Below are positions 93 through 63,229 of a stretch of DNA of 64,000 nucleotides, piece by piece; within the stretch, counting starts at the first letter, position 1; each line of letters begins with the position of its first letter. Both the position numbers and the translations under genes were made by a program. The DNA comes from Bacteroidota bacterium. Lineage in GTDB: Bacteria; Bacteroidota; Bacteroidia; JAFLBG01. The notes under the pieces were generated by a model that was given only the letters and a program-made list of their open reading frames with translations, was not told the origin of the DNA and did not search any database. The stretch lies in the NCBI GenBank assembly GCA_017303975.1, contig JAFLBG010000005.1:39353-103352 (forward strand), read 5' to 3'.

Positions 93-387
93 ACGGTATA
101 AAAATTAAAAGTTTAAAGTTATAGAGTTTAAAGCTCTATGCTAATTAATTAGACAAATTTTTTGCCGCTGGCTATCAACTACTTACAACATACTTAAACC
201 CTATATTATGGGATGGTTAAGTAACCGAAGCAAATGATACAAGTAAAGGCATCGAAAAAACAGCAACAATCCATTTAAGAGAAATTGCTTTTCAAATTGA
301 CAAAGATGTGAAGAGCTCTCTCTTTTTTTGAAAAACGACCAAAAACTGGCTATCTTATATTGCTAATTAAAACATGCATGTAAAGCA

Positions 388-15352: not shown

Positions 15353-15449
15353 TACCAACCATTTCACTGAACTTTATTTCTATAAACCTGTTTATATTTT
15401 GCTAAAATTCCTGTACGTTTGTTAATCAATAACTTAAACTAAACTATTT

Positions 15450-34071: not shown

Positions 34072-34596
34072 TTAGTAGTACAAATACTCGTTAGATAAAA
34101 CGAATGAGAAATAAACTATCTCAGGCGAAATTTTTGTAGAGTCTAAGTTGCCTCCGGAATCTTTCCCCCATGTTTCGATATAGTTTTTTACATATGTTTT
34201 TTCTGCTTCGGTAGGATATCGTATATAAAAACGCTTGTAGGTGTCGTTCACAAATTTATCTACATCGGCCATCATCTCTACATGGGTTGGCTTTAATACT
34301 TTTTTGCTTACATCGTTCAACATGTTATTAATTACCAATTCTCGCACCAACGATTTATCCCCCACAGCTTCTATTGTCTGACTAATTTCAAAAATTTGAT
34401 TGGCACTAAGCGCCTTTTGAAAAAGGTTGGCATGCAGTATAGCCACAAACTGCTCGTTGGTTTTTAGTTTTGTTTTACCAGATGTGCTAGGGTTTAATGT
34501 AATGGGATTTACATCATACGTAGGCTCTAATTCTTTTTTGCAACCTACCACAAAAAGAAACAGACAAAGGGTTGATGTAATTAATATTTTTTTCAT
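34072..34596 (-). CDS. lipoprotein, unknown function (174 aa)
   Basis: lipobox (FVVGCKK); 11-nt gap to the downstream gene. Confidence 0.5.
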   Translation of the reverse strand: MKKILITSTLCLFLFVVGCKKELEPTYDVNPITLNPSTSGKTKLKTNEQFVAILHANLFQKALSANQIFEISQTIEAVGDKSLVRELVINNMLNDVSKKVLKPTHVEMMADVDKFVNDTYKRFYIRYPTEAEKTYVKNYIETWGKDSGGNLDSTKISPEIVYFSFVLSNEYLYY

Positions 34597-34641
34597 TTTA
34601 AAGTTTGTTAATTGAAACTATACACTTTCAATTTAAATACG

Positions 34642-34711
34642 CCACAAAGTCTTCGACTGGCTCAGGCTGACTTTCGCTCGGTCATATTGAGCCTGTCGAA
34701 ATAGTGCGTTG
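34642..34711 (-). repeat. copy A of a ~70-nt palindromic repeat element with 13-bp imperfect terminal inverted repeats TTCGACAGGCTCA...TGAGCCTGTCGAA; intragenic-operon location
   Basis: the reverse complement aligns at about 85% identity with 49967..50037, including the flanking CA(A/G)CGCACT and CGAAGACTT blocks. Confidence 0.7.
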
Positions 34712-35795: not shown

Positions 35796-36440
35796 CTACC
35801 TTACAACTAGTTTTTTATTGTAAAGCTTGTTATTACTACTTGCGGTAATTGTGTATAAACCGGGAGCTAAATTTTGGTTAGTTTCTATGTTTGTTATTAT
35901 TTGTTCCTCTTCTAAAATAAATGCTTTGGAGTAATGCTCTTTGCCCAACACATCGTGCACTACTATTAACACCTCTTCTCCGGACTGTCCGGTAAATGCT
36001 ACATTGATATTACCATTGGTTGCCGGATTAGGGTAAACCATCAGTAGAGAACTTTCCAACTTTAAACGTTGAAACTCTACCGCTACCAATTCGCTATAAT
36101 CATATGCTCCATCAAAATCGGTTTGTTTTAGGCGGTAGTAAGATGTGCCTTGAAAAGGCTTTGTATCAATTGTTGCATAATTTAGTATTTGAGAGCTATT
36201 GCCAGCTCCATCAACAGTTGCAACAAACTCATAATTAACTCCGTCTTGTGTTTTTTCAATTGTAAAGTAATCGTTATTCGTTTCGCTGGCAGTTGTCCAT
36301 TTTAATTGGGCGTATTCGTTATTTATATTTTCGGCTGTAAAACTTAATAGTTCTATCGGTAGGCCCACCATGCAGGTAGTAGCCAATTCAGAGGTATTGT
36401 TGTCTGATACTGTGCGCTGTGGCGGTAACACTTTCTCCAT
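35796..36440 (-). CDS. C-terminal segment (FN3-like domain plus type-A T9SS CTD) of a giant parallel beta-helix cargo; probably part of one gene spanning 35796..42065
   Basis: ends ...LMVYPNPATNGNINVAF...NKLYNKKLVVR (type-A CTD); the ORF opens only 3 codons upstream of its ATG and overlaps the 3' end of ORF 36388..39273 in another frame. Confidence 0.6.
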   Translation of the reverse strand: MEKVLPPQRTVSDNNTSELATTCMVGLPIELLSFTAENINNEYAQLKWTTASETNNDYFTIEKTQDGVNYEFVATVDGAGNSSQILNYATIDTKPFQGTSYYRLKQTDFDGAYDYSELVAVEFQRLKLESSLLMVYPNPATNGNINVAFTGQSGEEVLIVVHDVLGKEHYSKAFILEEEQIITNIETNQNLAPGLYTITASSNNKLYNKKLVVR

Positions 36441-39423
36441 TATTAATAGTTACACCACTTAAGCTCCACGCCCCACTACCATTAGCTAATACTGACCCAA
36501 GGTATGTCATTGCATCTTGGCAATTGCCTGTATTGTTTTTAAATACTTCTACCGTATCGTTGGCTGTGGCTGTACCACTGACACTTGTTCCATTAAAGGC
36601 TGTTACGGATGGTTTTGCTTTGCTTGCATTGGCACTAGATGCTAGGGTTACACCACTGGCATTAGAGTAAATTAAATTTCTCGAAATTAAATTTCCTGTA
36701 CATGATGCCCCGGTTAAATAAACTCCAGCAGTACCATTGTGTGCAATTACATTACCATACGGATTTTGCCCGGTTGCCCCACTATTACCACCAATAGCAT
36801 TACCAATATTCCCATTGCTGATATATATTCCATAAGCCTGAACGGTTCCTGTAGGGGCACTTCCAGTTGAAGTACATCCAATATAATTTCCTTGTATTTT
36901 GGCACCAGTGGTGGTGGTTGAAAATAAGCGTATGCCATTTTGGGTATTTCCAGAAATTATATTTTTCTCGGCTGCACTCACCCCTCCAATCTGTAGGCCT
37001 AAAGTATTTGAAACTACCCTAATCCCAATATTTTGGTAGTAGTTAGAGGTGCCGGAAGTACCATCTGCAGCCAAACCTATTATATTACCCTTAATAACTA
37101 CATTATTATTATTGTTGTTAAAAAATATGATTCCGGACGATAATGCTCCATAGTTTGCAGAAATTACATTTCCATCACCAGCAGAGGTGCCTCCAATTTG
37201 GGTGCCATTTGCGCCACTTAACAGATGAATTCCTGCATCTTGCGAAGAAGAAGCAATGCCGGAAGCCCCGTCAGTTCCCACTCCAATGTAATTTCCTTTT
37301 ATAATGGTACCGGTCATATTGGTATTTATATAGATGCCTGCTGTTTCATTCCCGCCAATAATATTTCTTTTACCCGAACCATTGCCTCCAATAGTTTGGT
37401 TATTGCTATTAACATAAATTCCGTTTAGTTGGGTATTCGAAGAAACATAACTCATACCATTTGCTTGTGTACCTATATGATTTCCAAAAACATTATCTAC
37501 TCCACTCGATTCTAAAATAATACCACTATTTATATTTCCGCTTATAACATTTCCTTCGCCAGCTGTTGTACCACCAATGGTATTTCCGTTAGAAGTGCCT
37601 GATAAATATACCCCTATGTCGTTCGAAGCTTTTGTGCTTCCATCACTACCTAAACCTATATAGTTCCCCTTAATATTGTTTCCACTAGAACTTCCGGATA
37701 TGCTTATTCCCCAGGCGTTATATCCAAATGTTAAAACATATTCGTGCCCTGAAATTATATTTCTACCGGAAGAAGTTCCGTTTCCAATGAGATTTCCATA
37801 CGAATTACTTATGTCTATCCCAACACCCTGACCACTACTATTTGCAGTCGAAACTTCTGAAACACCATCCGGATTTAACCCAATAATATTACCTAGTATT
37901 GTGTGGGATGTAACAGAGCTTAGTAAAATTCCTGTTCCATTTGAGTCATTTAATTGATCACCATTGTCAGAAATAGTATTTCCTTCGCCACTGGTGGTTC
38001 CCCCTATTGTGTTGGAATGTGCAGAACTATGGCACGATATTCCAGTGCGTTGTCCAATGGTATAAGATATGCCCGATGCGTCTTCATCTGAACCTATTCC
38101 AATTTTATTGCCTTTTATGCTATTGCCTGAAGTGCTTGCTCCTGTTAGCAAAATACCCGCTGTATTATTTAATGAAATAATATTACGAGCTCCGGTTGTG
38201 CCACTCCCTATTTGATTATTGGTGCTCCCATTAGCCAAGTATATACCATAGTCCTGATCGCTATTTACCTCCCCAAGTCCACCTCTATTTAAACCAATTA
38301 CATTACCTAAAATAGTATGAGAAGATACTCCGTTTAAATAAATACCTGAATTTGTATTTCCTGTAACTGTATTTTCCTCGGCTGAAGCCGTACCTCCAAT
38401 GGTGTTGCTATTGGATGAAGCTCCTCCCGAAATATAAATGCCATAATCTTGTGATGATGTAGCTATAGCAGATGTTCCATTACTTGCTAATCCTATATAA
38501 TTTCCTTTAATACTAGCGCCTGTTGTATAGTTAGAAATATAAATTCCCGCCTCTGTATTTGCAGATATAATATTGCGAGCTCCGGATACATTTCCCCCTA
38601 TTACGTTGTTTGACATATATTCTCCATCTCCAAAATCGTAGAAATAGATACCATATTTTTGGGTAGAAGATGTAACAACAGTAGAGCCATCTGCTTGCGG
38701 GCCTATGGTATTTCCAATTATGGTATTACTACTTACCGATTCGGGATTATAATCTAACGCACTTCCTAAATAAATGCCATACCCTCCTGCAGCACCATCG
38801 TTATTGCCTGATATAATATTTCCTTCTCCGGCTGCAGTTCCGCCAATGGTATTATACATACAGGCATCATATAAATACGCGCCATAATTTTGGGTGCTGC
38901 TTGTCACAAAAGAAGTGCCATTGCTTTGCAATCCTATGTAGTTTCCTTTTACTACGTTTCCGGTTGCTCCCGGATAAGTAATAGTGACACCCGAATATTC
39001 ATTCCCGGAAATAATATTTCGTTGAGCGTTTGCACCACCAACAGTATTATTAGTACCAGATATATCCACACCCGTTTGTTGAGCATGGGAGGTTACATAA
39101 GTACTACCATCTTTTTGTAGCCCTATTACATTTCCAATAACAGAATTGTTTGTTCCCCCAACTCCAATACCGGAAGTGTTCCCCGAAATTACATTTGCCT
39201 CTCCTGCAGCGGTGCCTCCTATTGTGTTGTACGAGCCAGCTAGACCAACCCCTCCTTGAGCAGATGATGTCATAAAGCTAGTGCCATTGCTTTGCAGTCC
39301 AATAAAATTTCCTTTGACAATATTTCCGGTAGTACCGGAGCCACTGAAATTTACCCCTGCACTTTTATTTCCTGAAATAACATTTCCACCTGCGGTTTGG
39401 GTATTACCAATAACATTGTTTAA
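36388..39423 (-). CDS. middle segment of the giant parallel beta-helix repeat protein (PbH1-type N.IGGT..GEGN.ISGN repeats)
   Basis: the reading frame stays open upstream of the annotated ATG (39273) through 39423 and keeps the same repeat motif (..NNVIGNTQTAGGNVISGN..GNFIGLQSNGTSF-MTSS..); the annotated 147-nt intergenic gap is therefore coding. Confidence 0.6.
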   Translation of the reverse strand, partial: LNNVIGNTQTAGGNVISGNKSAGVNFSGSGTTGNIVKGNFIGLQSNGTSFMTSSAQGGVGLAGSYNTIGGTAAGEANVISGNTSGIGVGGTNNSVIGNVIGLQKDGSTYVTSHAQQTGVDISGTNNTVGGANAQRNIISGNEYSGVTITYPGATGNVVKGNYIGLQSNGTSFVTSSTQNYGAYLYDACMYNTIGGTAAGEGNIISGNNDGAAGGYGIYLGSALDYNPESVSSNTIIGNTIGPQADGSTVVTSSTQKYGIYFYDFGDGEYMSNNVIGGNVSGARNIISANTEAGIYISNYTTGASIKGNYIGLASNGTSAIATSSQDYGIYISGGASSNSNTIGGTASAEENTVTGNTNSGIYLNGVSSHTILGNVIGLNRGGLGEVNSDQDYGIYLANGSTNNQIGSGTTGARNIISLNNTAGILLTGASTSGNSIKGNKIGIGSDEDASGISYTIGQRTGISCHSSAHSNTIGGTTSGEGNTISDNGDQLNDSNGTGILLSSVTSHTILGNIIGLNPDGVSEVSTANSSGQGVGIDISNSYGNLIGNGTSSGRNIISGHEYVLTFGYNAWGISISGSSSGNNIKGNYIGLGSDGSTKASNDIGVYLSGTSNGNTIGGTTAGEGNVISGNINSGIILESSGVDNVFGNHIGTQANGMSYVSSNTQLNGIYVNSNNQTIGGNGSGKRNIIGGNETAGIYINTNMTGTIIKGNYIGVGTDGASGIASSSQDAGIHLLSGANGTQIGGTSAGDGNVISANYGALSSGIIFFNNNNNNVVIKGNIIGLAADGTSGTSNYYQNIGIRVVSNTLGLQIGGVSAAEKNIISGNTQNGIRLFSTTTTGAKIQGNYIGCTSTGSAPTGTVQAYGIYISNGNIGNAIGGNSGATGQNPYGNVIAHNGTAGVYLTGASCTGNLISRNLIYSNASGVTLASSANASKAKPSVTAFNGTSVSGTATANDTVEVFKNNTGNCQDAMTYLGSVLANGSGAWSLSGVTINNGESVTATAHSIRQQYL

Positions 39424-42065
39424 GGAGCTGTGGCTATATAAACTCCAAAGGCTTGAATAGAAGCTACGGCCGAAGTTACAATAGTAGAGCCATCTTTTTG
39501 CGGACCAATAAAATTGCCTACTACCGTATTGCTACTTGCTGCATTTAAATAAACTCCCCAGCCTGTGGGTGTACCGGCACCGTCTCCGTTTCCACTTATT
39601 ACATTTCCTTCTCCTGCTGCCGTGCCGCCTATGGTGTTAGCGGATGCAGAGGTGGTTAAATATATTCCGTAGTCTTGTGAAGAAGATGTAACTACTGTAG
39701 TACCATTGCTTTGCAAACCAATGTAGTTGCCTTTTATGTTGTTACCGCTACAGCCAGCCCCTGTCAGGTATGCGCCATAAGTGGCATTTCCTGATAGAAT
39801 GTTTCTGCCCGAACTAATTGTATTTCCAATTGTGTTATTGGTAGAGTTGTTGGCTAAATAAACTCCATAATGTTGTCCATTAGAACTTATTAGAGTTGAG
39901 CCATCTTTTTGCAAACCAATAATATTTCCTGTTACCGTATTGGAACTAACACCATTAATGTAAACCCCATAACCAATGGAGGTGGAATTATTTTGATTAC
40001 CGGATATTACATTGGCGTCTGCGGTGTTATTTCCTCCAATAGTATTAAATGCTGCACTATTGGTTATATACACCCCATACTCTTGATAACCGCTTTTGGT
40101 GGCTCCATCGGAGCCCACACCAATGTAATTACCTCGTACAATATTGCCCGATGTGCCAGAGCCATCTAGATATAAGCCATATTGACTTGCCATAGAAATG
40201 ATGTTGCCCTCTCCGGCAGCAGAACCTCCAATGTAGTTTCCAAAACTTGCATTGTAGAGCGCAAGATTGTACTGAGAAATAGAATTCGCGCTATTGGTTA
40301 TACCATCTGCTTGTAAGCCTAAAACATTTCCTATTATGGTGTTAGAGGTTGCTGCACTCAAATGTATGCCTGTTCCGGCTGTATATCCAACATTCCGATT
40401 GGAAGAAATAACATTTTTATCTGAAGTAGAAGTTCCTCCTATTCGATTCGATTTTGCTCCGGATGCCAAATAAATACCAAACGCTTGTGTGCCGTTACTC
40501 ACCCTACCAGTGCCTGCAGAATTTACTCCTATATAATTGCCAATAATTGTATTAGAACTGGCTCCGGCCCCGGTAAGATAGATGCCGTAACCATTTGAGA
40601 CATTATCGCAATTACCCGAAATAATGTTTCTGGCTATTGTTGAGGAATTACCGCCAATTGTATTTCCATAACAGCCATTGCAATATACTCCATGGCTTTG
40701 TGTGGTAGAGGTTACAGCTGTAGAACCCCCAACTTGCGGACCAATAGTATTTCCTAACAACGTATTGGAGGTAACTCCATTTAAATACACACCATATCCG
40801 GTTGATGTACCATCAGAATTGCCACTAATAACATTTCCTTCTCCTGTAGCAGTGCCACCAATAGTATTTCGTTGTGCAGAGCCTGTTAAATAAACTCCAT
40901 TATCTTGTGTATTGCTAGTTATAAAAGTGGCGCCATCGCTTGCAATACCTATGTAGTTTCCTTTTATTTGATTAGCAGAAGAAGATGAGCCTGTTAAATA
41001 AACTCCGGAGTTGGTATTAGCTGAAATAATATTTCTGAAACTACCAGATGTACCACCTATTATTAAAGAGTAAGAGTTGGATAAATAAATGCCATAGGTT
41101 TGTGGGTTTGAAGCTCCCGTTATTACAGAGCTTCCGGTAGACGTAGTACCAATTCGATTGCCGTATATGTATTGAGGGGTAGTTATACTAGAACAGAAAA
41201 TCCCACTACTACTATTCCCAGAAATTAAGTTGCCATCGTTGATGCCCGTTCCCCCAATGGTATTACTTGTTCCAACACCAGTAAGTAAAATGCCGGTGGC
41301 GTATTTAGAGGCTCGGGTTGTTCCATCTTTTTGCAGCCCAATAATGTTTCCTTTTATTATATTTCCTGTAGAGGAGGCTCCGGACATGATAATTTGCCCG
41401 AACGACCCAAAACCAGAGATATTACAACCACTTATTAAATTAACACCCGATGCAGTTCCATCGCCTATAAGATTATTGGCAGAGTTTACAATGTAAATTC
41501 CAATATCGGTATTATAGGTAGTGGTAGAGCCATCGGTGTCTATACCTATGTAACAAGCGGTTATAGTATGCGAAGAACTGGAGTTTAAATGTATTCCGTA
41601 GTCGCCAAAACTACCTGCCGTTCCAAAATTTCTTAGTACTAACCCCTTTATCAAACTACCGTCTGACCCTGCATTTAACACTAAGCCATCAAAAGCTCCT
41701 GTGCCTCCTCCATCAATACAAACCATATTTTGGTAAGATAGCGGATTAGCCACAGTTGTGGCAAAGGGAACAACGGTATTAGTTACAAAACCTGTATTGG
41801 AAGTACCGTCAATAAAAACTTGAGCAGCCATAGCGGGCAAAGCGGCTGTTAATGTTATTACAGCAGCGCCTACACTAAAATTAATAGTTCCACCTCCTCC
41901 TCCATTTTCATTGTCGTTTATTGCCTCTCTTAGCGAACAGTGTATTCCATCGCAAGTTCCATCATCCACATCGTTTGTAGAATTTACTGTATAGGTTTGA
42001 CCTATAAGCAAATTACTTATAACAAAAAATAAAAATACCAAATATTCTATTCTCTTGACAATCAT
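39420..42065 (-). CDS. N-terminal segment (signal peptide plus parallel beta-helix repeats) of the giant T9SS cargo
   Basis: signal peptide; more than 30 tandem ~23-aa beta-helix repeats; stop at 39420..39422 falls mid-repeat (..QAFGVYIATAP*). Confidence 0.6.
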   Translation of the reverse strand: MIVKRIEYLVFLFFVISNLLIGQTYTVNSTNDVDDGTCDGIHCSLREAINDNENGGGGGTINFSVGAAVITLTAALPAMAAQVFIDGTSNTGFVTNTVVPFATTVANPLSYQNMVCIDGGGTGAFDGLVLNAGSDGSLIKGLVLRNFGTAGSFGDYGIHLNSSSSHTITACYIGIDTDGSTTTYNTDIGIYIVNSANNLIGDGTASGVNLISGCNISGFGSFGQIIMSGASSTGNIIKGNIIGLQKDGTTRASKYATGILLTGVGTSNTIGGTGINDGNLISGNSSSGIFCSSITTPQYIYGNRIGTTSTGSSVITGASNPQTYGIYLSNSYSLIIGGTSGSFRNIISANTNSGVYLTGSSSSANQIKGNYIGIASDGATFITSNTQDNGVYLTGSAQRNTIGGTATGEGNVISGNSDGTSTGYGVYLNGVTSNTLLGNTIGPQVGGSTAVTSTTQSHGVYCNGCYGNTIGGNSSTIARNIISGNCDNVSNGYGIYLTGAGASSNTIIGNYIGVNSAGTGRVSNGTQAFGIYLASGAKSNRIGGTSTSDKNVISSNRNVGYTAGTGIHLSAATSNTIIGNVLGLQADGITNSANSISQYNLALYNASFGNYIGGSAAGEGNIISMASQYGLYLDGSGTSGNIVRGNYIGVGSDGATKSGYQEYGVYITNSAAFNTIGGNNTADANVISGNQNNSTSIGYGVYINGVSSNTVTGNIIGLQKDGSTLISSNGQHYGVYLANNSTNNTIGNTISSGRNILSGNATYGAYLTGAGCSGNNIKGNYIGLQSNGTTVVTSSSQDYGIYLTTSASANTIGGTAAGEGNVISGNGDGAGTPTGWGVYLNAASSNTVVGNFIGPQKDGSTIVTSAVASIQAFGVYIATAP

Positions 42066-42262: not shown

Positions 42263-43888
42263 TTATTTACGGAGCAAAGCCTCTATGGCCTTACCAATAG
42301 CCTTGTCGGAAGATTGTTGCGATTTATAATAACCTTCGGCCCCCCAAATATTTCGGGCAACAAGCGATTTTATGTTTTGTTTTAACAATGCCTTTGATAC
42401 TAAAAATTCCCCTTCGTTCTTTTTTATCTTCATACTCTCCCCTTGCTTCACAAGCCTTTCGAGCATATCATCACCTACCTCAAAGTCTGAAACAAACTGT
42501 TCTATTGAATGGAATTTGGTCTTTAATTGCAATCGGTTTTTATCTGCCCACTCAAATGCAAATTGATTAACCACTCCTTTATAGTAGAGTTCTGTTAAAT
42601 ACGTTGTTCTCCCAACAGTATCCATTGGTACAAACAAATCAGGCATAATTCCACCACCACCATATACAATCTTGCCTGCAGGTGTTTTAAATTTTAATGA
42701 ATCGATAAATTTAATACTATCAGCACTTTGCAACTCACCATTCTCGAAGCGCTCGTATTCTTCTTTCAAATACGCTTCAATGCCCTTCTTATACGACTTT
42801 TGTATGCATCTGCCGGTGGGGGTATAATATCTGGCTGTAGTAAGCCGAATAGCCGAGCTGTCTGGAAAATCAGTTTGCTCTTGCACCAACCCTTTACCAA
42901 AAGAACGCCTCCCAACCACCAACCCTCTGTCGTTGTCTTGAATAGCTCCTGCAACAATCTCGCTGGCCGAAGCAGATCCCTCGTCAATCAAAACAACCAA
43001 TTCGTTTTTTTCAAACTCCCCGGAAGAAGTGGCTTTGTATTCTCTTCTACCATGCGCCCTACCTTCGGTATAAACAATCATTTTATTGTCGGATAAAAAT
43101 TCATCCGACAAATCTATCGCAGCGTTGAGCAATCCACCTGGATTTCCACGAATATCCAAAACCATTTTTTTCATCCCTTGTTTTCGTAATTTTTCGAACG
43201 CTTCTAGATATTCATCAAATGTGGTTGCGGCAAAACGACTAATCTTAATATAGCCAATTTCTTTTGTAATCATGTAGGCCACATCCACACTGTAAATTGG
43301 GATTTTGTTGCGAACAATTGAAAAGTCAAGTAATTTTTTAATCCCCCTGCGCTCTACAGAAATGTTTACTGTTGTACCTTTCGGGCCGCGCAATTTTTTA
43401 AACACATCGTTATTAGTGATTTTTACTCCAGCCACACTTTTACCTTCTACTTTTACAATTTTGTCTCCGGGCTGAATACCGAGTGCCTCCGAAGGTCCAC
43501 CCACAATGGGCGATATAACACGAATTGTGTCGTTTACAATATTAAATTCAATTCCAATCCCATCGAAGTTGCCTTGTAATGGTTCGTTTGCCGCTTTAGA
43601 CTCTTCGGCAGTAATATAGGCAGAGTGAGGGTCGAGTTGCTGCATCACTTCTTGCAGAGTATTATCCACCAATTGTTTTCGATTGATAGTATCTACATAC
43701 TGTGTTTGTATGTAATCAAGAATCTGATTTATTTTATCATTACTGCTTTGTTTGGTGGCTATGCGCTGCAATAAGGAGGTATCTGAGGAATAGGTAGCAG
43801 ATATTTTAATGCCAATAAATACACCAATGATTAAAATTATTGCAAATAGTAACGGAAGTAGAATCTGGAATTTTCGGTTATGCTGCAT
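42263..43888 (-). CDS. ctpA: carboxy-terminal processing protease (S41 family, PDZ-containing)
   Basis: N-terminal TM anchor, PDZ (GIQPGDKIVKVEG) and the S41 catalytic region (LIDEGSASASE). Confidence 0.85.
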   Translation of the reverse strand: MQHNRKFQILLPLLFAIILIIGVFIGIKISATYSSDTSLLQRIATKQSSNDKINQILDYIQTQYVDTINRKQLVDNTLQEVMQQLDPHSAYITAEESKAANEPLQGNFDGIGIEFNIVNDTIRVISPIVGGPSEALGIQPGDKIVKVEGKSVAGVKITNNDVFKKLRGPKGTTVNISVERRGIKKLLDFSIVRNKIPIYSVDVAYMITKEIGYIKISRFAATTFDEYLEAFEKLRKQGMKKMVLDIRGNPGGLLNAAIDLSDEFLSDNKMIVYTEGRAHGRREYKATSSGEFEKNELVVLIDEGSASASEIVAGAIQDNDRGLVVGRRSFGKGLVQEQTDFPDSSAIRLTTARYYTPTGRCIQKSYKKGIEAYLKEEYERFENGELQSADSIKFIDSLKFKTPAGKIVYGGGGIMPDLFVPMDTVGRTTYLTELYYKGVVNQFAFEWADKNRLQLKTKFHSIEQFVSDFEVGDDMLERLVKQGESMKIKKNEGEFLVSKALLKQNIKSLVARNIWGAEGYYKSQQSSDKAIGKAIEALLRK

Positions 43889-44373
43889 TAACGGAGTGTG
43901 TTACGTTCCAAGAAGTCTCGGTTGGTATATTCTACTACCTCCACGCCAAATTTGCGCAAAAATGCAACACCTTCGTCAATCGGAAACCCTTTGAAAGCGG
44001 CATACGAATCTAAATAAAACACCTTTTTAATTCCCGTTGTATAAATTACACGGGCGCAGGCAATACAAGGAGAAAGAGTAACATACAAAGTTGTTCCCTC
44101 AACAGAAACGCTATTTTTTTGAGCATATAAAATTGCGTTTTGTTCTGCATGCAAAGCCAATGAACAACTTCCTTTTAAATCTCTAGCACAACCTTGTCCC
44201 GGCCATTCTTCATCGCAATTGTGGGTTCCGGCTGGGGGGCCGTTATAGCCCAATGAAATAATACGTGTGTCTTTTGAAAGAACGGCTCCCACGTGTGCTT
44301 TTACGCAATGCGACCGCTTAGACAGATTTACTGCCAATTCCATGTATATGTCGTCAAAGCTAGGGCGTGCCAT
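43888..44373 (-). CDS. dCMP deaminase (ComEB-type zinc deaminase)
   Basis: HAEQNAI and PCIACAR zinc-binding motifs; 161 aa. Confidence 0.85.
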   Translation of the reverse strand: MARPSFDDIYMELAVNLSKRSHCVKAHVGAVLSKDTRIISLGYNGPPAGTHNCDEEWPGQGCARDLKGSCSLALHAEQNAILYAQKNSVSVEGTTLYVTLSPCIACARVIYTTGIKKVFYLDSYAAFKGFPIDEGVAFLRKFGVEVVEYTNRDFLERNTLR

Positions 44374-44458
44374 AAGAAGTTTAAAGTTTAATAGTTAAAA
44401 AGTTTAAAGTTTGAAAGACGCAAATCCATACAAACTTTAAACTTTTTAACTGAAAACG

Positions 44459-44542
44459 TACCCGAAATCGGGGTCGAACCGATATATCCGTGAAGATACT
44501 GGTGTTTGAGACCAGCGCGTCTACCAATTCCGCCATCCGGGC
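44459..44542 (-). tRNA. tRNA-Leu, anticodon CAA, type II with long variable arm
   Basis: hand-folded cloverleaf: acceptor GCCCGGA/UUCGGGU (two G-U pairs), D arm GCG-GAAUUGGUAGA-CGC, anticodon stem CUGGU/ACCAG with loop CUCAAAC, 15-nt variable arm, T arm AUCGG-UUCGACC-CCGAU, discriminator A; CCA not encoded. Confidence 0.8.
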
Positions 44543-49966: not shown

Positions 49967-50037
49967 CAGCGCACTTATTTCGACAAGCTCAACATGACCG
50001 CGCTAGTCAGTCTGAGCCTGTCGAAGACTTGGGGTGG
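49967..50037 (+). repeat. copy B of the ~70-nt palindromic repeat element, in inverted orientation relative to copy A
   Basis: CAGCGCACTTATTTCGACAAGCTCAACATGACCGCGCTAGTCAGTCTGAGCCTGTCGAAGACTTGG; internal 11 to 13-bp inverted arms; lies about 65 nt upstream of the lipoprotein gene at 50101. Confidence 0.7.
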
Positions 50038-50100
50038 AATCATTTTAGAAACTGGGAGCTATGAACTAAAGAGCATGGCTAAAACTAACGAACAGGAACA

Positions 50101-51730: not shown

Positions 51731-52480
51731 TTACTCAAATTTTCTTAATTCTAATGTATTCCCATCAAAAACTGCATACGTAAAATATTTTACCCACTCA
51801 CCTAAATTAACATACCTAGAATGCTCATTTAGCTTGATGTCTAAAGGCAAGTGCCTGTGACCAAAAATAAAATAATCAAAATTTTCTTTCTTCAATTCCT
51901 CTCGTGCAAACTGAACTAACCATTCCTTGTCTTCTCCTAAAAAAATTTCATCTTTTTCAATATTCGCTACACGGCTTTTTTTAGACCAAAACTTAGCCAT
52001 CCCAATTCCTAAGTTAGGGTGCAATCGGGCAAACAACCACTGGCAAAAAGGATTTGCAAAAACCCTTTTAATAAACTTATATCCATGATCTCCGGGACCC
52101 AATCCATCGCCATGCGCTAAAAAGAACTTTTTATTATTGTACACCTTTACAATTGATTTGCGAATTATTTGCACACCTAATTCCTTGGGCAAATAATCAA
52201 ACATCCACATATCATGATTTCCGGTAAAAACATATACTGGAATTCCGGCATCAGTTAACTCTGCTATTTTCCCTTGCAACCGCGCAAATCCTTTCGGAAT
52301 AGCACTTCTATACTCAAACCAAAAATCAAACAAATCTCCCATCAAATAAACTTCTTTGGCGTTTTGTTTTATTTCATCCAACCACTTCACAATTTTTTTT
52401 TCGCGTACCAAACTGGTTTCATAATCAGGAACTCCCAAATGAAAATCGGATGCAAAATATATATTGTTGCGCAATGTCAC
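51731..52480 (-). CDS. lpxH: UDP-2,3-diacylglucosamine diphosphatase (calcineurin-like metallophosphoesterase)
   Basis: DFHLG...GDLFDFW...GNHD...GHRH metallophosphatase motifs in the LpxH arrangement, 249 aa. Confidence 0.75.
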   Translation of the reverse strand: MTLRNNIYFASDFHLGVPDYETSLVREKKIVKWLDEIKQNAKEVYLMGDLFDFWFEYRSAIPKGFARLQGKIAELTDAGIPVYVFTGNHDMWMFDYLPKELGVQIIRKSIVKVYNNKKFFLAHGDGLGPGDHGYKFIKRVFANPFCQWLFARLHPNLGIGMAKFWSKKSRVANIEKDEIFLGEDKEWLVQFAREELKKENFDYFIFGHRHLPLDIKLNEHSRYVNLGEWVKYFTYAVFDGNTLELRKFE

Positions 52481-55458
52481 TATATTTTAATTTCTCTTAT
52501 CAACTTAAATGGATTAACGCTTTTTAAATTCAAGCTAAATCGTATTGTCTCGGGATATGTCCACCCGTTTACTGTAATCGTATTTTTAATATCAGACGAC
52601 ATGGCTAGAGGCAAGTAAATATCAAACACATTTTTATAAATGGAAAACACCAAGCCCGCATTATACAAAAACTGTTGCTTTAAAACTGCATCGCTGGCAA
52701 CATACGCAAAATCTGCGTACAGCCGAATAATTGGGAAAGGCAACGATGTTTTTAGATTTAATGCGGTAAGCCATTTTCGAGTTTGCCCTAAAGGTGTATA
52801 TACTTTAAAAGCACCATCTGCTTCTGTAAATTGCTGCGACAACAAGCCGGAAGCCTCTGTTCGTCCTAAGAAAATATCATCATACAGATAATCTTGATAA
52901 CCTCTCCATCCACTTGTTCTAAAACGATATGGCCCAGCATTTGTAGCATTGATAAATGCTCCCGCAAACAATCGCACATCAAAGCTTTTATTTTTTTTCT
53001 TAAATGTAAGCGAATAATTAGCTGTAAGGGAAATCTTGCTCATATCATCTCCCGCTTGATAATTCAACACAGCTTGATATGGATTAATTGGACGAAGATT
53101 TTTTAACTCATATGATACCTCATGGAAATTTCTATATACTGTATCTCTTCCATAAACAGGAGGTGTAAATTCGTACTTACCATAATAGGTTTCATTTATT
53201 TGGTATATAAATCTATAATTAAGATAATGTTTAAGCGTATTACGCTCTCGTTTATTCTTAAATTCTGCACGCACAAAAGGAGCTAATTTTGTATAACTCA
53301 TATCAATAGGTGTCTGGGAGTACGAATACCTTTTCCCCTCCACACCAATTTGCACATTCGTAAATGAGCGCATAGACATAATGTTGTAATGTACATTGAA
53401 AGAGCCAGCCAAATCCTTGTTACCAAAAGCGTACATAGGCATTAGAAAATACTCGAACTTGCGTTGCAATATAGTTTGATTATACAACGCAACTCCCAAC
53501 ATAGATTTATTGTAATTATTCCAACCATAAGTTGGCACAAAAAACAGTTGCGATTTGGCAGGATTATCAAGCCCTCCAAGAAACTGAATTTTTATCGGCT
53601 CTACCTTCTTCCCTATTTTTTTGTTTGCATATTTATTGTTGTTTCTATTTAGCTCCGGCACTTTTCCGGCATAGTCCAACACAAAATAATCAACATCTAA
53701 ACTCGGGAATCCCAAATTCTGAATGCCCGAAAACCCATCGTACCAGACTTCTGCAACTAACTTATTGTTTTTTATTCCACATAAATTTATCGGAGCATTT
53801 ATCTTTCCTTTGTTTTTAACCAATACATTATATCCCGACTCCTTTGAATTATACACTTTCATTATTTTGTAGTCAATTTTATTGGTAGTAGCCAATAGTT
53901 TATCAAAAAACCAACTCAAGTCTTTTCCCGATTCTTGCTCAAATATTTTTCTTATATCAGCCGGTTGCGGATGTTTAAATTTCCATTGCGTAAAATAGAT
54001 TTGCATTATCCTATCAAATTCCGACTGACCCAAGTAAGCCGCCAAATAACCAAATGTGTAGGCAGTTTTTTTATACACAATAGCACCGTAATTTAGCTCA
54101 GTATATTCTTCTGATGTTAACTCAATGGGTTGATCGTTATTAAGAGATGCAGGATATGCATAACTTAAATACTCTTCGTTTAAACTAATGTTATTAATTT
54201 TAGCAAGAGCAGGAATATTAAAGCCGGGTAAATTCAATCCACTTCCGTGGTATAGTTTCGTGTATCGGCCTTCATAATAAGAGTTGATGCCTTCGTCCAT
54301 CCACGGATGCAAACGCTCGTTAGAACCTAATATCCCGTAAAACCAATTGTGTCCAACTTCGTGCGCTATAACAAGCTCTAAAAGTTCCTTGCTATTTGTA
54401 GGGCTAATAACTGTAATGGTAGGGTACTCCATTCCACCACCCGCAGTTAGCGCTCCATCAACTGCATTGCATACATTGTAAGGATAATTACCAACCCATT
54501 TACTGTAATTGAATACGGCATTGTTTATGTATTGTATGCTATTGCTTTTCCACGCTCCTGCATTCTTACTTGTAAAATAAGCCCAAGTAGTAACGGTTTT
54601 AGTGCTATCGGGCAACGCTACCTCTCCTTTTAAAACATTGTATCTCTTGTCTGCGAACCACGCAAAATCATGAATGTTTTCTTGTTGAAAATGAAGTGTT
54701 TTTAATTCTTTGTTGGAAGCAGGGAAAACCATTTCTGCATCTGTAAATGTATTGCGAGCAGAGGTTTCGTTCGCCTTCTTATTCAACCATTCAAGTTCTT
54801 GATTGTCCATTAGATTGCCAGTGGCTGCAATTACATAATTCTTTGGAGCAGTAATATACACATCAAAGGTTCCAAACTCTGAATAAAATTCGCCCAAATC
54901 TAAGTATGGCATAGGATGCCAACCATCCTTGTCGTACACTGCCGGCTTAGGATACCACTGAGATATTTGGTATTGTTGACTTACATGACCCAAGCGTGAA
55001 AAATTACCATCTGGAATTTTAACTCGAAAAGGAGTTGTTATGGTAATAGTTTCTCCGGGCTTAATAGGTGAATTTAGCAGCAATTTGGCAACGTCAATAT
55101 TTTCTTTATCTACTTCATATTTTACAGCTATATCATTTACCTTAAAGCTCAAACTATCTATAAAACCGCGCTTATCGGCCGATGCAAAATAAAATTCTTT
55201 GTTACCATTCTCAAACAATTGCTTGCCCAGTGCGGTAGTATTATCTTTATAGCCATTGGGCCATAAATGCATATATATAAAAGCTAACTCGTCCGGAGAA
55301 TTATTTGTATAGGATATTGCTTCAAAAGCATGTAGTTCGTGCTTATTATCGTTAAGCTGAACTTTGATATCGTAATTTACAGATTGTTGAAAATAGGATT
55401 GAGAAGATCCTACAAATGGAATAGAAAAAAAAACTAGGCAATAAATTAAAAACCTCAT
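52480..55458 (-). CDS. M1-family zinc metallopeptidase, large and secreted
   Basis: HEVGHNWF...WMDEGINSYYE (HExxH plus E) motif; the start was moved from 55515 to the ATG at 55458 (MRFLIYCLVFFSIPFVGSS signal peptide) because 55459..55515 is occupied by a terminator hairpin. Confidence 0.75.
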   Translation of the reverse strand: MRFLIYCLVFFSIPFVGSSQSYFQQSVNYDIKVQLNDNKHELHAFEAISYTNNSPDELAFIYMHLWPNGYKDNTTALGKQLFENGNKEFYFASADKRGFIDSLSFKVNDIAVKYEVDKENIDVAKLLLNSPIKPGETITITTPFRVKIPDGNFSRLGHVSQQYQISQWYPKPAVYDKDGWHPMPYLDLGEFYSEFGTFDVYITAPKNYVIAATGNLMDNQELEWLNKKANETSARNTFTDAEMVFPASNKELKTLHFQQENIHDFAWFADKRYNVLKGEVALPDSTKTVTTWAYFTSKNAGAWKSNSIQYINNAVFNYSKWVGNYPYNVCNAVDGALTAGGGMEYPTITVISPTNSKELLELVIAHEVGHNWFYGILGSNERLHPWMDEGINSYYEGRYTKLYHGSGLNLPGFNIPALAKINNISLNEEYLSYAYPASLNNDQPIELTSEEYTELNYGAIVYKKTAYTFGYLAAYLGQSEFDRIMQIYFTQWKFKHPQPADIRKIFEQESGKDLSWFFDKLLATTNKIDYKIMKVYNSKESGYNVLVKNKGKINAPINLCGIKNNKLVAEVWYDGFSGIQNLGFPSLDVDYFVLDYAGKVPELNRNNNKYANKKIGKKVEPIKIQFLGGLDNPAKSQLFFVPTYGWNNYNKSMLGVALYNQTILQRKFEYFLMPMYAFGNKDLAGSFNVHYNIMSMRSFTNVQIGVEGKRYSYSQTPIDMSYTKLAPFVRAEFKNKRERNTLKHYLNYRFIYQINETYYGKYEFTPPVYGRDTVYRNFHEVSYELKNLRPINPYQAVLNYQAGDDMSKISLTANYSLTFKKKNKSFDVRLFAGAFINATNAGPYRFRTSGWRGYQDYLYDDIFLGRTEASGLLSQQFTEADGAFKVYTPLGQTRKWLTALNLKTSLPFPIIRLYADFAYVASDAVLKQQFLYNAGLVFSIYKNVFDIYLPLAMSSDIKNTITVNGWTYPETIRFSLNLKSVNPFKLIREIKI

Positions 55459-55490
55459 CGATAGCTTAAAATAATACGCCTTAATATAAT

Positions 55491-55528
55491 AAAAAAGTCC
55501 CGTTATGTGATACATAACGGGACTTTTT
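55491..55528. terminator. bidirectional rho-independent terminator
   Basis: AAAAAGTCCCGTTATGT-GAT-ACATAACGGGACTTTTT; perfect 13-bp stem flanked by an A-run and a T-run, directly after the stop of ORF 55544..56920. Confidence 0.7.
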
Positions 55529-55543
55529 AACTGAATTATAAAA

Positions 55544-56920
55544 TTACTTAACTACGTTAAATCTTTTTGTAGAAAGTGTTTTTCCGTCTTTTACTAGAGA
55601 GTAGAAATAAATACCATTCTCTAAGTTTTTAGTACTAACAGTTACATAGTTCAAACCTTTGTTTACGTTTGAGCTAGCAGCAGTTGTTACTTTTTGACCA
55701 ACTGTGTTATACACTTCTAATGCAAAGCTTCCGCCATCAATAGAATTAACAGGAATAACAACTTCTCCGCCTGCAACTGCCGGGTTAGGATAAGCTAAAC
55801 CTAAGATAGCTGATTCAGATTTTTCAATTTCGTTAGTAGATACGATATCGCAACCACTTAAACAACGTAATTTATAAGAAATTAAATGGTGCTCGAATGC
55901 ATACTCTGCTCCTGTTTGTCCAGATGAGTTAGAGCCCATATACGCAAACGAAGGCAACATAGAACCATACCACCCTGTGTTGTTAGCTGGTGTATCGTAT
56001 CTTACGTCTGTTGTCATTATGTAAGAAGCATTGAAATCTCTTTTTACGTAGATAGGGAATGTTCCATTTCCTCCACCATCACCATTCTCTTCTAAAGAAA
56101 CAAAGTTCACTCTGTTTTTAGATTGTAATGTATCTGACAAGCTGTATGAATAACCAGGAATAAATTTAATAGCAGAAACAACTAATCTTCCAGCACTAAT
56201 ATTTGATAGTCCTGTAGTTGCAACTGTTGCTAGGTGCCATCCACCAGCTGTAGTATCAGCAGCAAATGCAGAATCTAAAACTACCTTATACTGAGCCTTA
56301 CCTGCTACACCCATAGAGTAAGTAGTATGGTTATAAGCTACGTCTTTAAAAAACACCGTGTCTGCTAAAGAAGAAAGACCTGTGAAATAATAAGTTGGCA
56401 ATTGAGGTGTTGCACCGCTAGTTGTATTGTTAACAGCTACTTCTATCAATAAAGTATCAACAGAACTTATATTTCTTGTGTATACAAACTGAAACTCTAA
56501 TGAATCTAACGCATAAGAACTAGTTTTAGATACAATCATTTCCCCAGCATTATTGTACGCAGGATCGCTAAAAAACTGAGAAGTTGGATCTAATACATCT
56601 GCAATATTATGTACCCATGGAGAGCCGAATGTATTACCACTAAACTCTGCAGTAATATTAGAATCCGGGAACAAAAAATTTCCTGCCAGTGAACCAGCTC
56701 CTCCAGAAACGATATCCATTACAGCACCATAGTTATACCATCTGTCGTTTGCACCTTGAGATGAAGCATGCTTTACCGGCTGGTAAGGCTTACTAACATC
56801 CATTTTACGAGCTCCATTTGTTACAAAAGGAACTTGTTGCTTGTTTGCAGCAGATTGCGCAAATGAGAAAGAACCCATTGCCAACACTGCCACACTTAAA
56901 AAAGTAGTGATTTTTTTCAT
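55544..56920 (-). CDS. secreted protein with type-A T9SS C-terminal sorting domain
   Basis: signal peptide; C-terminus LAYPNPAVAGGEVVI...GIYFYSLVKDGKTLSTKRFNVVK. Confidence 0.7.
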   Translation of the reverse strand: MKKITTFLSVAVLAMGSFSFAQSAANKQQVPFVTNGARKMDVSKPYQPVKHASSQGANDRWYNYGAVMDIVSGGAGSLAGNFLFPDSNITAEFSGNTFGSPWVHNIADVLDPTSQFFSDPAYNNAGEMIVSKTSSYALDSLEFQFVYTRNISSVDTLLIEVAVNNTTSGATPQLPTYYFTGLSSLADTVFFKDVAYNHTTYSMGVAGKAQYKVVLDSAFAADTTAGGWHLATVATTGLSNISAGRLVVSAIKFIPGYSYSLSDTLQSKNRVNFVSLEENGDGGGNGTFPIYVKRDFNASYIMTTDVRYDTPANNTGWYGSMLPSFAYMGSNSSGQTGAEYAFEHHLISYKLRCLSGCDIVSTNEIEKSESAILGLAYPNPAVAGGEVVIPVNSIDGGSFALEVYNTVGQKVTTAASSNVNKGLNYVTVSTKNLENGIYFYSLVKDGKTLSTKRFNVVK

Positions 56921-61096: not shown

Positions 61097-61270
61097 GCAA
61101 TATTCTTCTTTCTAAACACTAGCAAAGAATCCGTAGTTTCGTTAAAACTCTTTGTTACTACACACAACAGAAATTTTAACTATTTGATTATAAGCACATT
61201 GAACTTAAATTTGATAGTTTCTGTTACCATTTTTTTTTATATATTTGGGGCTCACTAAACTTAATTAATT

Positions 61271-61807
61271 GTGGCTAAAAAAGTAACTACATCCAACATA
61301 CAACCGCAAGCTTTACAGCTTAACGAGATACAAGATTTGATTAAATTTGTAGCAAAATCGGGCGTAAGCGAGGTTGAGTTGCAAATAAAAGATTTTAAAA
61401 TAACAATTAAAACGCCTGCAGGCTCCAGCAATGCTCCTATTTTGGTTCAAGCAGCGCCTCAGGTAAATACAGCTCCCATAGTGCAAACGGTTGCAGCCCC
61501 TGTTGCCGAAACAAAAGCATCTGAACAAAAAAAGGAAACACCAGCCTCAACTACAGACGAGTCGAAGTATATTACTATTAAGTCGCCAATGATTGGTACA
61601 TTCTACCGCTCAGCAGGACCGGATAAACCTCCATTTGTTAATGTAGGCGATGAAATAAAGCCTGGTAAAGTAATTTGTATTATTGAAGCCATGAAGCTAT
61701 TCAATGAAATTGAAGCTGATATAAAAGGTAAGATTGTAAAGGTATTAGCAAACGATGCTACACCGGTAGAGTACGACCAACCATTATTCTTGGTAGATCC
61801 ATCCTAA
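61271..61807 (+). CDS. accB: acetyl-CoA carboxylase biotin carboxyl carrier protein
   Basis: Ala/Pro-rich linker and C-terminal biotinyl domain with EAMKL; GTG start. Confidence 0.85.
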   Translation: MAKKVTTSNIQPQALQLNEIQDLIKFVAKSGVSEVELQIKDFKITIKTPAGSSNAPILVQAAPQVNTAPIVQTVAAPVAETKASEQKKETPASTTDESKYITIKSPMIGTFYRSAGPDKPPFVNVGDEIKPGKVICIIEAMKLFNEIEADIKGKIVKVLANDATPVEYDQPLFLVDPS

Positions 61808-61888
61808 TTCAGTTAAAAGTGTAAAGTTCAACGTTTTTGTGTTTAAACTTTAGGCTTTAAACTACCCAACTTTAAACTTTAAAAAAGT

Positions 61889-63229
61889 ATGTTTAAAAAA
61901 ATATTAGTTGCCAATCGCGGAGAGATTGCGTTGAGGATTATTAGAACCTGCCGTGAAATGGGCATCCAAACGGTAGCTGTTTATTCCACAGCTGACAAAG
62001 ATTCTTTGCATGTAAAGTTTGCCGATGAAGCGGTTTGTATTGGACCTCCACCGAGCAAAGATTCGTATTTAAACATTCCTAATATTATATCGGCTGCAGA
62101 AATTACCAATGCCGATGCTATACATCCCGGCTATGGGTTTCTATCGGAGAACTCTAAGTTTTCTAAGATTTGTCAAGAACATAAAATAAAATTTATTGGA
62201 GCTACACCAGAGCAAATTGATGCAATGGGAGACAAATCGTCTGCAAAAGACACCATGAAAAAAGCAGGTGTTCCTTGCATACCTGGATCAGAGGGACTTT
62301 TGGAGGATGTAGCAGACGCTAAAAAGACCGCAAAAAAAATTGGATACCCTGTAATCATAAAAGCTACGGCAGGTGGGGGAGGCAGAGGGATGCGTATAAT
62401 TTGGGGTGAAGATGAATTAGAAAAAAACTTTGAATCGGCTACACAAGAAGCTGCTGCTGCATTTGGCAACGGAGCTTTGTACATGGAAAAATACATTGAA
62501 GAGCCTCGACATATAGAAATCCAAATAGCTGGCGATCAATATGGAAAGGTTTGTCATTTATCGGAAAGAGATTGCTCTATACAAAGACGTCATCAAAAAT
62601 TAGCTGAGGAAACTCCCTCGCCTTTTATGACGCAAGAGTTGCGAGAAAAAATGGGAGAAGCTGCCATAAAAGCCGCATCCGCAGTAAATTACGAAGGTGT
62701 AGGCACTATAGAGTTTTTGGTGGATAAACACCGTAATTTCTATTTTATGGAAATGAATACTCGTATTCAAGTGGAACATCCAATTACAGAAGAGGTAATT
62801 GATTACGACTTGATTCGTGAACAAATACTAATTGCATCGGGCGTTCCTATCTCGGGAAAAAATTATTATCCGCAATTGCATGCTATTGAATGTCGCATAA
62901 ATGCAGAAGATCCATTTAATGGATTCAGGCCATCACCGGGGAAAATTACTGTATTACACACCCCTGGCGGACATGGAGTACGCGTAGATTCGCATATTTA
63001 CGCTGGCTATGTTATTCCGCCAAATTACGATTCGATGGTTGCTAAGCTGATTACGATGGCTCAAACACGCGAAGAAGCTATTTCTAAAATGCATCGTGCA
63101 TTAAGTGAATATGTAATTGAAGGTGTTAAAACTACCATTCCGTTTCACTTGCGCTTGATGAAAGACAAAAACTTTATTGAAGGGAAATACACTACTAAGT
63201 TTTTAGAAGATTTTGATTTAACGGCCTAG
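61889..63229 (+). CDS. accC: acetyl-CoA carboxylase biotin carboxylase subunit
   Basis: ATP-grasp motifs ([18 protein letters not shown]), 446 aa. Confidence 0.9.

Follow-up and report, generated by a model that had tools for sequence, protein, structure and literature searches.

Tandem heptamers located before start codons have been described in a few bacteria, and they have never been explained. Among them are the TAACTGA repeats of Beggiatoaceae, Cyanobacteria and five Bacteroidetes, which are mostly forward and intergenic, precede unrelated genes, essential ones included, and most commonly leave a gap of 1 nt to the start codon (MacGregor 2015, PMC4679880). In Flexibacter litoralis, 12 of the 14 TAACTGA sets lie 1-43 nt upstream of a start. 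Translational regulation via S1, Csp or CsrA-like proteins was proposed for these repeats (PMC4679880). The same paper, in its summary of Mrazek (2007), gives the heptanucleotide as the commonest long simple-sequence repeat in prokaryotes. In Nostoc PCC 7120, contiguous heptamers (TTTTGAA/TTCAAAA) are found upstream of, or overlapping, many start codons; their deletion alters reporter expression, and effects on transcription-factor access have also been reported (bioRxiv 10.1101/2022.06.06.494920). In Haemophilus influenzae, the (ATCTTTC)n array of the hmw1A 5'-UTR forms a long hairpin, which is cut by RNase III and controls expression post-transcriptionally (PMC12721329).

With regard to the host lineage, initiation in Bacteroidia depends on an initiation region without structure, on adenines upstream of the start and on surroundings that avoid AUG (PMC6847099). 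Start codons are thus chosen and tuned in Bacteroidota without Shine-Dalgarno pairing. Two further systems are relevant here: translational coupling, in which an intercistronic hairpin hides the downstream initiation region, and the 'epsilon' translational enhancer of phage T7 gene 10, which reads UUAACUUUA. The cyanobacterial STRR sequences are comparable tandem heptamers as well.

Here, we analyse a repeated element in a 64-kb stretch of a contig from an uncultured Bacteroidota (hereafter the window). A first-pass annotation of the window had noticed a recurrent 12-mer, AAGTTTAAAGTT, a few nucleotides upstream of start codons, and had proposed that it is a binding site for a global regulator or a translation-initiation enhancer.

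Heptanucleotide arrays in the window

The 12-mer has five exact matches in the 64-kb window against 0.05 expected, and eight matches against 1.84 expected when one mismatch is allowed; none of 100 shuffles reached five and eight matches, respectively. All five exact copies (Table 1) are intergenic, though only ~5% of the window is intergenic. One additional copy with one mismatch, at 61817-61828(+), is located inside the accB-accC spacer, and the other two, at 14609 and 36058, sit within ORFs and are chance-like. The recurrence is therefore non-random, as had been claimed, and the positions given in the first-pass annotation all check out, including that of the palindrome GTTTAAACTTT at 61841-61851 in the accB-accC spacer.

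Nevertheless, the element is not the discrete 12-mer binding site that had been supposed. The 12-mer belongs to a tandem repeat, which TRF detects with period 7 at three sites, and corresponds to two units of a heptanucleotide array of variable length, written (CTTTAAA)n for the sense strand or (CUUUAAA)n for the mRNA. Three of the sites carry ~3.6-6 units each, and the fourth retains a remnant of 1.4 units. As the lone heptamer CTTTAAA is not over-represented in the window (35 matches, 36.4 expected), the signal resides in the tandem arrangement. Exact matches to proteins of the window occur only on short Logan contigs from the same sample (SRR13786856), two of which were aligned with the window and proved identical; the arrays are short and imperfect.

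At all four sites, the G-poor strand of the array is the sense strand of the downstream gene, and the array, or the copy nearest to the gene, is separated from the ATG by 0, 3, 5-9 or 16 nt. The proposed tie to start codons is thus confirmed, with a strong positional and strand bias. The distances of 16 and 9 nt reported earlier are exact, and the one at the deaminase gene, which is 3 nt, had been given correctly to within one base. Read on the sense strand, the array presents TAA in all three frames over three units. The unit is G-less and not self-complementary, and (CTTTAAA)n is devoid of AUG, GUG and UUG. The array is most of the leader just 5' of the start codon in at least three unrelated genes, and probably in four. 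The register of the array relative to the AUG is not fixed across the sites of the window, and A is absent at -3 and -6 at the deaminase site. We also noticed that the leader of ORF 15450-16589 (15425-15449), which reads AACTTAAACTAAACTATTT-ATG, is a degenerate (TAAAC)n tract resembling the heptad unit.

Table 1. Positions of the features discussed, numbered from the first nucleotide of the window
Feature	Position	Strand	Description
Exact AAGTTTAAAGTT copies	109-120(+), 44377-44388(+), 44400-44411(+), 44433-44444(-), 61868-61879(-)		Pattern search
Array A	108..133	(-)	TRF period 7, 3.6 copies; sense GAGCTTT AAACTCTA TAACTTT AAACTTT
Partial array D	34597..34606	(-)	AAACTTTAAA, ~1.4 units, abuts ATG at 34596
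S41 peptidase gene	42263-43888		Next after deaminase gene; Pfam PF03572, 6e-52
dCMP/cytidine deaminase gene	43888..44373	(-)	Downstream of array B; Pfam PF00383, 1.7e-23
Array B	44377..44417	(-)	TRF, 5.4 units; sense CTTTC AAACTTT AAACTTT TTAACTAT TAAACTT TAAACTT
Inverted arm B	44431..44451	(-)	AGUUAAAAAGUUUAAAGUUUG; begins 7 nt past tRNA-Leu 3' end
tRNA-Leu(CAA)	44458..44542	(-)	Upstream neighbour of site B; ARAGORN; Rfam tRNA
14-mer TTCAGTTAAAAAGT	44441-44454(-), 55522-55535(-)		Exactly two copies in window
Promoter consensus TTTG-N19-TAnnTTTG	61183..61213	(+)	Full match, upstream of accB
accB (biotin carboxyl carrier protein)	61271..61807	(+)	Pfam PF00364
Inverted arm C	61811..61828	(+)	AGUUAAAAGUGUAAAGUU; begins 4 nt past accB stop codon
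Array C	61842..61883	(+)	TRF, 5.9 units; TTTAAAC TTTAGGC TTTAAAC TACCCAAC TTTAAAC TTTAAAA
accC (biotin carboxylase)	61889..63229	(+)	Pfam domains; 76-88% identity to Bacteroidota AccC

The forward and reverse copies of the 12-mer, which had been treated as equal sites, differ in nature. The reverse, G-poor copies form the array adjoining the start, whereas the "forward" copies are, according to fold prediction, inverted partial arrays just 3' of the upstream gene, acting as cis-complementary hairpin arms for which the distal portion of the array would be the partner. At site B, the inverted arm pairs perfectly over 21 bp with positions 44393-44413 of the array, which constitute the 3' arm of the predicted hairpin (MFE -26.9 kcal/mol, z = -6.9, with none of 200 shuffles as stable). 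The stem is A+U-rich, with a 17-nt loop and a core flanked by A5 and U5, and the proximal copy of the array (44377-44389), 3 nt before the deaminase ATG (44373), is unpaired in the predicted fold. At site C, the inverted arm pairs with 61846-61863, the degenerate middle units of the array, in a weak hairpin (-15.2 kcal/mol, z = -1.4). Array C ends 5 nt before the accC ATG (61889), and its last exact 12-mer (61868-61879), 9 nt before the AUG, is predicted to be unpaired.

In the fold predictions, a convincing complementary arm is absent at sites A and D. Array A ends 16 nt before the ATG (92-90, minus strand) of a membrane-protein gene that is truncated by the window edge; the same ATG is used by a gene call on a Logan contig from the same sample (L082 2..205). 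Array D precedes ORF 34072-34596(-), which encodes 174 aa with no Pfam match, and a degenerate complementary stretch, AAAGTGTATAGTTT, is located nearby at 34615-34628. The copy nearest the AUG is predicted to be unpaired at all four sites of the window. All four initiation regions are predicted to be more accessible than the median, though not exceptionally so (ranks 8, 16, 17 and 18 of 49), and the arrays are therefore not needed for an open initiation region.

Transcription signals and neighbouring repeats

The absence of the Bacteroidota -33/-7 promoter from the motif, as asserted by the first-pass annotation, was confirmed: TAnnTTTG has no match in 93-140, 34597-34640, 44374-44457 or 61808-61888. 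As there is no -7 box in any array of the window, a promoter reading of the arrays was rejected. The full consensus TTTG-N19-TAnnTTTG has four matches in the window, which is the number expected by chance, and the match upstream of accB is the only one that is both intergenic and upstream of a gene. This match is probably the promoter of the accB(C) operon, a weakly supported assignment. Since it precedes accB and the accB-accC spacer holds no consensus promoter, the spacer appears to lie within one mRNA.

With regard to termination, a scan for consensus terminators gave nothing at sites B or C. The 14-mer TTCAGTTAAAAAGT, which forms the 5' flank of the site B hairpin, is identical to the flank of a canonical terminator at 55.5 kb, and the accB-accC spacer begins with a copy that lacks one base, at 61808-61821(+). 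Each of these copies lies 0-8 nt past the end of the upstream gene, namely tRNA-Leu, ORF 55544-56920 and accB. The 55.5-kb copy runs straight into the canonical terminator, AAAAAGTCCCGTTAT...ATAACGGGACTTTTTT, at ~55494-55531. The antisense strand of the 14-mer contains TAACTGA. The listed ATG (55515) of ORF 52480-55515(-), of 1011 aa, falls inside the terminator stem of the upstream gene, so that translation of this ORF probably starts further downstream. In two other loci, a hairpin with arms (TCAAAGT)x5 and (AACTTTG)x2.4 and a G+C-rich inner stem is present between convergent genes (L086 7013-7095, equivalent to L087 11418-11494); its unit is near that of the window and its position is terminator-like.

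A search with Rfam 15 returned the tRNA as the only match in the window. For the accB-accC spacer, there was no match at E <= 1 and one chance-level match (E = 1.1, 17.8 bits versus a gathering threshold of 80), and no match was obtained within the accB-accC spacers of seven relatives. A REP/MITE-type element was rejected, as the sites have nothing in common beyond the heptads and a 14-mer, and their loops, uauggauuugcgucuuu and caacguuuuugug, are unrelated. A Rho-loading (rut) site was set aside, the arrays being G-poor but A/U-rich and not C-rich.

Two other features of the window were recorded. A second dispersed repeat of ~60 nt, TATTTCGACARGCTCAAYATGACC..GCG..AGTCAGYCTGAGCCWGTCGAAGACTT, which has internal dyad symmetry and no relation to the heptads, is present in two intergenic copies of opposite orientation, at ~34645-34705(-) and ~49992-50052(+). 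The 146-nt gap at 39274-39419, between two large ORFs, 36388-39273 and 39420-42065, of which the second contains NosD-like repeats, is coding-like, and the two ORFs may be one gene broken by a frameshift or an assembly error.

Occurrence in other Bacteroidota

We compared the window with 80 related Bacteroidota loci, for a total of 1.48 Mb; the ORF calls are crude and the statistics ignore the kinship of the genomes. Among 185,579 species genomes, the closest AccC shows 88% identity (MAG.246, L002), and the rest show at most 84%. Relatives identified through a search of metagenomes with the S41 peptidase show at most 54% identity, and the deaminase neighbourhood is not conserved in them.

The 12-mer itself is absent or at chance level in the 80 related loci, and a conserved operator was rejected for this reason. 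The same spacer architecture is nevertheless observed in related accB-accC loci, where it is built from other, lineage-specific units with matching arms. A conserved global regulator recognising AAGTTTAAAGTT, as the first-pass annotation had envisaged, is thus unlikely, since relatives bear other units at the same place. Several Flavobacterium loci exhibit (GTTAGAA)n right after the accB stop and (TCTAATT/ATCTAATT)n right before the accC ATG. Further accB-accC spacers exhibit (AAATTAT)n and (AATTTAA)n, a Sphingobacteriales MAG exhibits (GATGTGCA)n and (CATCTGCA)n, and another MAG exhibits (AAAATTTG)n and (ATTTTCAA)n.

Arrays of period 7 or 8 are found in 29 of the 67 accB-accC spacers of at least 50 nt, compared with 29 of 749 other intergenic regions (odds ratio 19). 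The accB stop and the left array are separated by 0-6 nt, and the right array and the accC ATG by 2-12 nt. In the predicted folds of the spacers, the first base pair is located at a median of 3 nt past the stop and the last at a median of 13 nt before the ATG. The fold of the sense strand is more stable than that of the antisense strand (Wilcoxon p = 0.003), as expected of an RNA-level structure using G.U pairs; overall, G.U pairs are not significantly in excess on the sense strand. When the first and last 35 nt of each spacer were compared with ends taken from the spacers of other genomes, cognate ends paired better than non-cognate ends (-11.6 versus -7.0 kcal/mol, p = 1e-14), which indicates that end-to-end pairing is kept while the sequence is replaced. 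Column-wise covariation within Flavobacterium groups was uninformative, the arms being conserved within groups and the repeats aligning ambiguously.

Considering all loci, 81 of the 95 arrays of period 7 or 8 are intergenic, though only ~17% of the sequence is intergenic by the crude ORF calls, and it is arrays of these two periods in which intergenic DNA is enriched. Among the 36 intergenic arrays outside accB-accC, 14 have a start codon no more than 25 nt downstream of their end, compared with 3.6 expected under random placement within intergenic DNA, and none of 2000 placements reached 14. The arrays adjoining starts contain 5.3% G on the sense strand, compared with 13% in all upstream regions, and G is less frequent than C in 35 arrays and more frequent in two. 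The housekeeping genes metG, frr, rsgA, rbfA and pdxA, whose N-termini are clear, are among those behind arrays. The array makes up the 5' UTR in two Flavobacterium loci, where it begins directly after a TAnnTTTG -7 box.

Several individual loci deserve mention. A nine-unit array (ATGTCTA/ATATCTA) on a 478-kb metagenome contig (L091 13052-13115) stops 17 nt short of the ATG of a gene encoding 454 aa, and has a TCTAA core in common with the arrays of the closest relative and of the Flavobacterium accB-accC spacers. In Capnocytophaga gingivalis (L054 635-684), ~7 units CTGACAA/CTGATAA, a rotation of the TAACTGA of MacGregor, end 14 nt before the metG start codon. In the Sphingobacteriales MAG (L046 9146-9373), three arrays totalling ~18 units lie upstream of accB, and their 8-mer family, GATGTGCA / ATTTGCAC / TGCACATC, also forms the accB-accC hairpin of the same locus. 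The Flavo-1 sRNA (RF01705) is found 0.4-3 kb past the end of accC in two Flavobacterium loci (L008 11702-11778 and L047 14338-14400).

Possible functions

Based on these observations, the reading that we prefer, and hold only tentatively, is that the array may be a G-free, start-codon-free leader for Shine-Dalgarno-independent initiation, gated in some cases by a complementary arm. Bacteroidia ribosomes, which do not use Shine-Dalgarno pairing, would depend on an unstructured, A/U-rich and AUG-free initiation region. A tandem array of a G-less, non-self-complementary unit could not fold on itself and might offer the 30S subunit a clean landing or standby strip, perhaps via bS1. Such arrays would readily be born by 7-nt replication slippage. 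An inverted copy located just past the upstream gene (4 nt after the accB stop, 7 nt after tRNA-Leu) would form a spacer-spanning hairpin with the distal array and thereby gate access to the leader. A ribosome terminating on accB could melt this hairpin, and the resulting translational coupling might set the AccB:AccC ratio; alternatively, the hairpin might be cleaved by a double-strand-specific RNase. A role in translation initiation in a lineage without Shine-Dalgarno sequences, which had been one of the two initial proposals, is the direction best supported, whereas the object concerned and its pattern of conservation differ from what had been proposed. A purely sequence-nonspecific role is disfavoured, because one unit is re-used at all sites of the window and another at all sites of the closest relative, accessibility is unexceptional and the register is not fixed.

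The re-use of one unit is what would be expected if the arrays were sites for a sequence-specific trans factor, possibly a protein that binds RNA (bS1, Csp-like or RRM-type) or else an antisense sRNA with (AAAGUUU)n. The CTTTAAA unit is common to all arrays of the 64-kb window (3/3 site pairs). In the closest relative, a different but related unit, (GTCTAAR)n, is present before accC and at two more intergenic sites, all three within 18 kb. Among within-genome pairs of sites, 11 of 50 share a 9-mer, compared with 2.3% of between-genome pairs (odds ratio 12, p = 4e-8), and the TCTAA core recurs in the arrays of several lineages. The same kind of recognition was proposed by MacGregor for the TAACTGA repeats (PMC4679880), and sRNAs of Bacteroides pair near start codons (PMC11697453). 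In contrast, some genomes have a different unit at every array site, as in L013, the genes concerned have no common function, the array length and the distance to the AUG are variable, and the forward copies are already accounted for by cis-complementary arms. We consider recognition by a trans factor somewhat unlikely, as well as its corollary, according to which the genes behind arrays would be co-regulated post-transcriptionally as one regulon, with unit and factor co-evolving lineage by lineage. A more far-reaching version, which we regard as quite unlikely, would make the heptad array a programmable substitute for the Shine-Dalgarno sequence, read by a co-evolving RNA-binding protein or sRNA, with cis anti-arrays as switches and accB-accC as the phylum-wide archetype. 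Equally doubtful is its extension, in which possibly a few hundred genes would carry (CUUUAAA)n, or (GUCUAAR)n in the sister lineage, in their initiation regions.

It is improbable that the hairpins are the functional element, as RNase III sites or AU-rich intrinsic terminators between tRNA-Leu and the deaminase gene and between accB and accC, with the heptad arms being incidental. The perfect duplex of site B is long enough for RNase III and bears A5 and U5 flanks, the 14-mer that opens this hairpin also directly precedes the canonical terminator at 55494-55531, and the hairpin between convergent genes in L086/L087 combines heptad arms with a G+C-rich core. There is also a precedent in the (ATCTTTC)n 5'-UTR hairpin of H. 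influenzae, which controls expression and is cut by RNase III (PMC12721329). However, complementary arms are lacking at sites A and D, at all three arrays of the closest relative and at many arrays elsewhere. Moreover, the terminator scan was negative at both hairpin sites, the right arms run into A-rich sequence and the ATG and not into a U-tract, and the hairpin of site C is weak.

The arrays could also be functionless, neutral products of 7-nt slippage that survive where they are harmless, between genes and oriented so that no G-rich or start-codon sequence arises upstream of them. The rank of heptanucleotides among long prokaryotic repeats, as summarised from Mrazek (2007) in PMC4679880, agrees with this, as do the dominance of periods 7 and 8 among the intergenic arrays of our data set, the differences in unit between lineages and initiation regions that are no more open than those of other genes. 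We nevertheless assign a low probability to neutral slippage, given that accB-accC arrays are found in several Bacteroidota classes at ~19x background with co-varying arms, that the strand and position biases are strong, and that unlinked sites in a genome re-use one unit. Finally, although direct heptameric repeats are bound by some regulators, for instance those of the SARP family, and one sequence is common to the promoter-proximal regions, it is highly improbable that a transcription factor or nucleoid protein uses the arrays as DNA operators, as they adjoin start codons and not promoters, lie inside the accBC operon with the consensus promoter upstream of accB, have a composition bias that tracks the coding strand, and conserve their architecture and not their sequence.

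Implications

The arrays are common in Bacteroidota, strand-specific, depleted in G, and concentrated at accB-accC, where their arms are lineage-specific and mutually complementary. The accB-accC junction is a phylum-wide test bed, and it is present in the sampled cultivable species of Flavobacterium and Chryseobacterium. For F. johnsoniae, genetic and ribosome-profiling tools have been published, with which coupling, RNase processing and sequence-specific recognition can be separated. Even if the arrays were tolerated slippage only, they would still mark true start codons and 5' UTRs for annotation.

Relation to described repeats

We assign the elements of the window, securely, to the class of heptad arrays that adjoin start codons in forward orientation; they are of the kind of the TAACTGA repeats, with a new unit and with cis-complementary arms. 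Like the repeats described by MacGregor, they consist of tandem 7-nt units in 2-6 copies, at times split by related 7-mers, and are intergenic, forward and a few nucleotides upstream of the starts of unrelated genes, including housekeeping genes. In both cases, the forward strand has stops in all frames, and there is no Shine-Dalgarno sequence. One unit dominates a genome in the described class, where singletons are unremarkable; in the 64-kb window, all arrays share the unit and singletons occur at about the expected number. The unit of the window is CTTTAAA and not TAACTGA, which makes it the same kind of element in a different sequence family; the metG array of L054 (CTGACAA/CTGATAA) was the sole case of TAACTGA-like units. 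Unlike the Beggiatoaceae genome, in which inverted repeats are nearly absent, the window has hairpin-forming inverted copies at 2-3 of its four sites. The heptamers of Nostoc are likewise tandem and near start codons, whereas the phylum and the units differ.

The motif of the window contains AACUUUAA, which we take to be epsilon-like, and the site B leader, beside the start codon, reads UUAAACUUUA, presumably a similar case. A shared explanation through rRNA pairing is unlikely, because relatives use unrelated units.

As in hmw1A, a heptamer array in the 5' leader is predicted here to pair with a complementary arm into a long hairpin. The hmw array comprises at least 11 units, is phase-variable, precedes an adhesin gene and has a G-rich arm cut by RNase III. 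In contrast, the arrays of the window comprise 2-6 imperfect units before housekeeping genes. We found no description of the accB-accC spacer hairpin in the literature. In comparison with typical translational coupling, the spacers, of 80-100 nt, are long, and the copy nearest the AUG in the window is already unpaired in the predicted fold. Nevertheless, as in coupling hairpins, the accB-accC arms adjoin the stop (0-6 nt) and the ATG (2-12 nt), and a terminating ribosome could open the stem.
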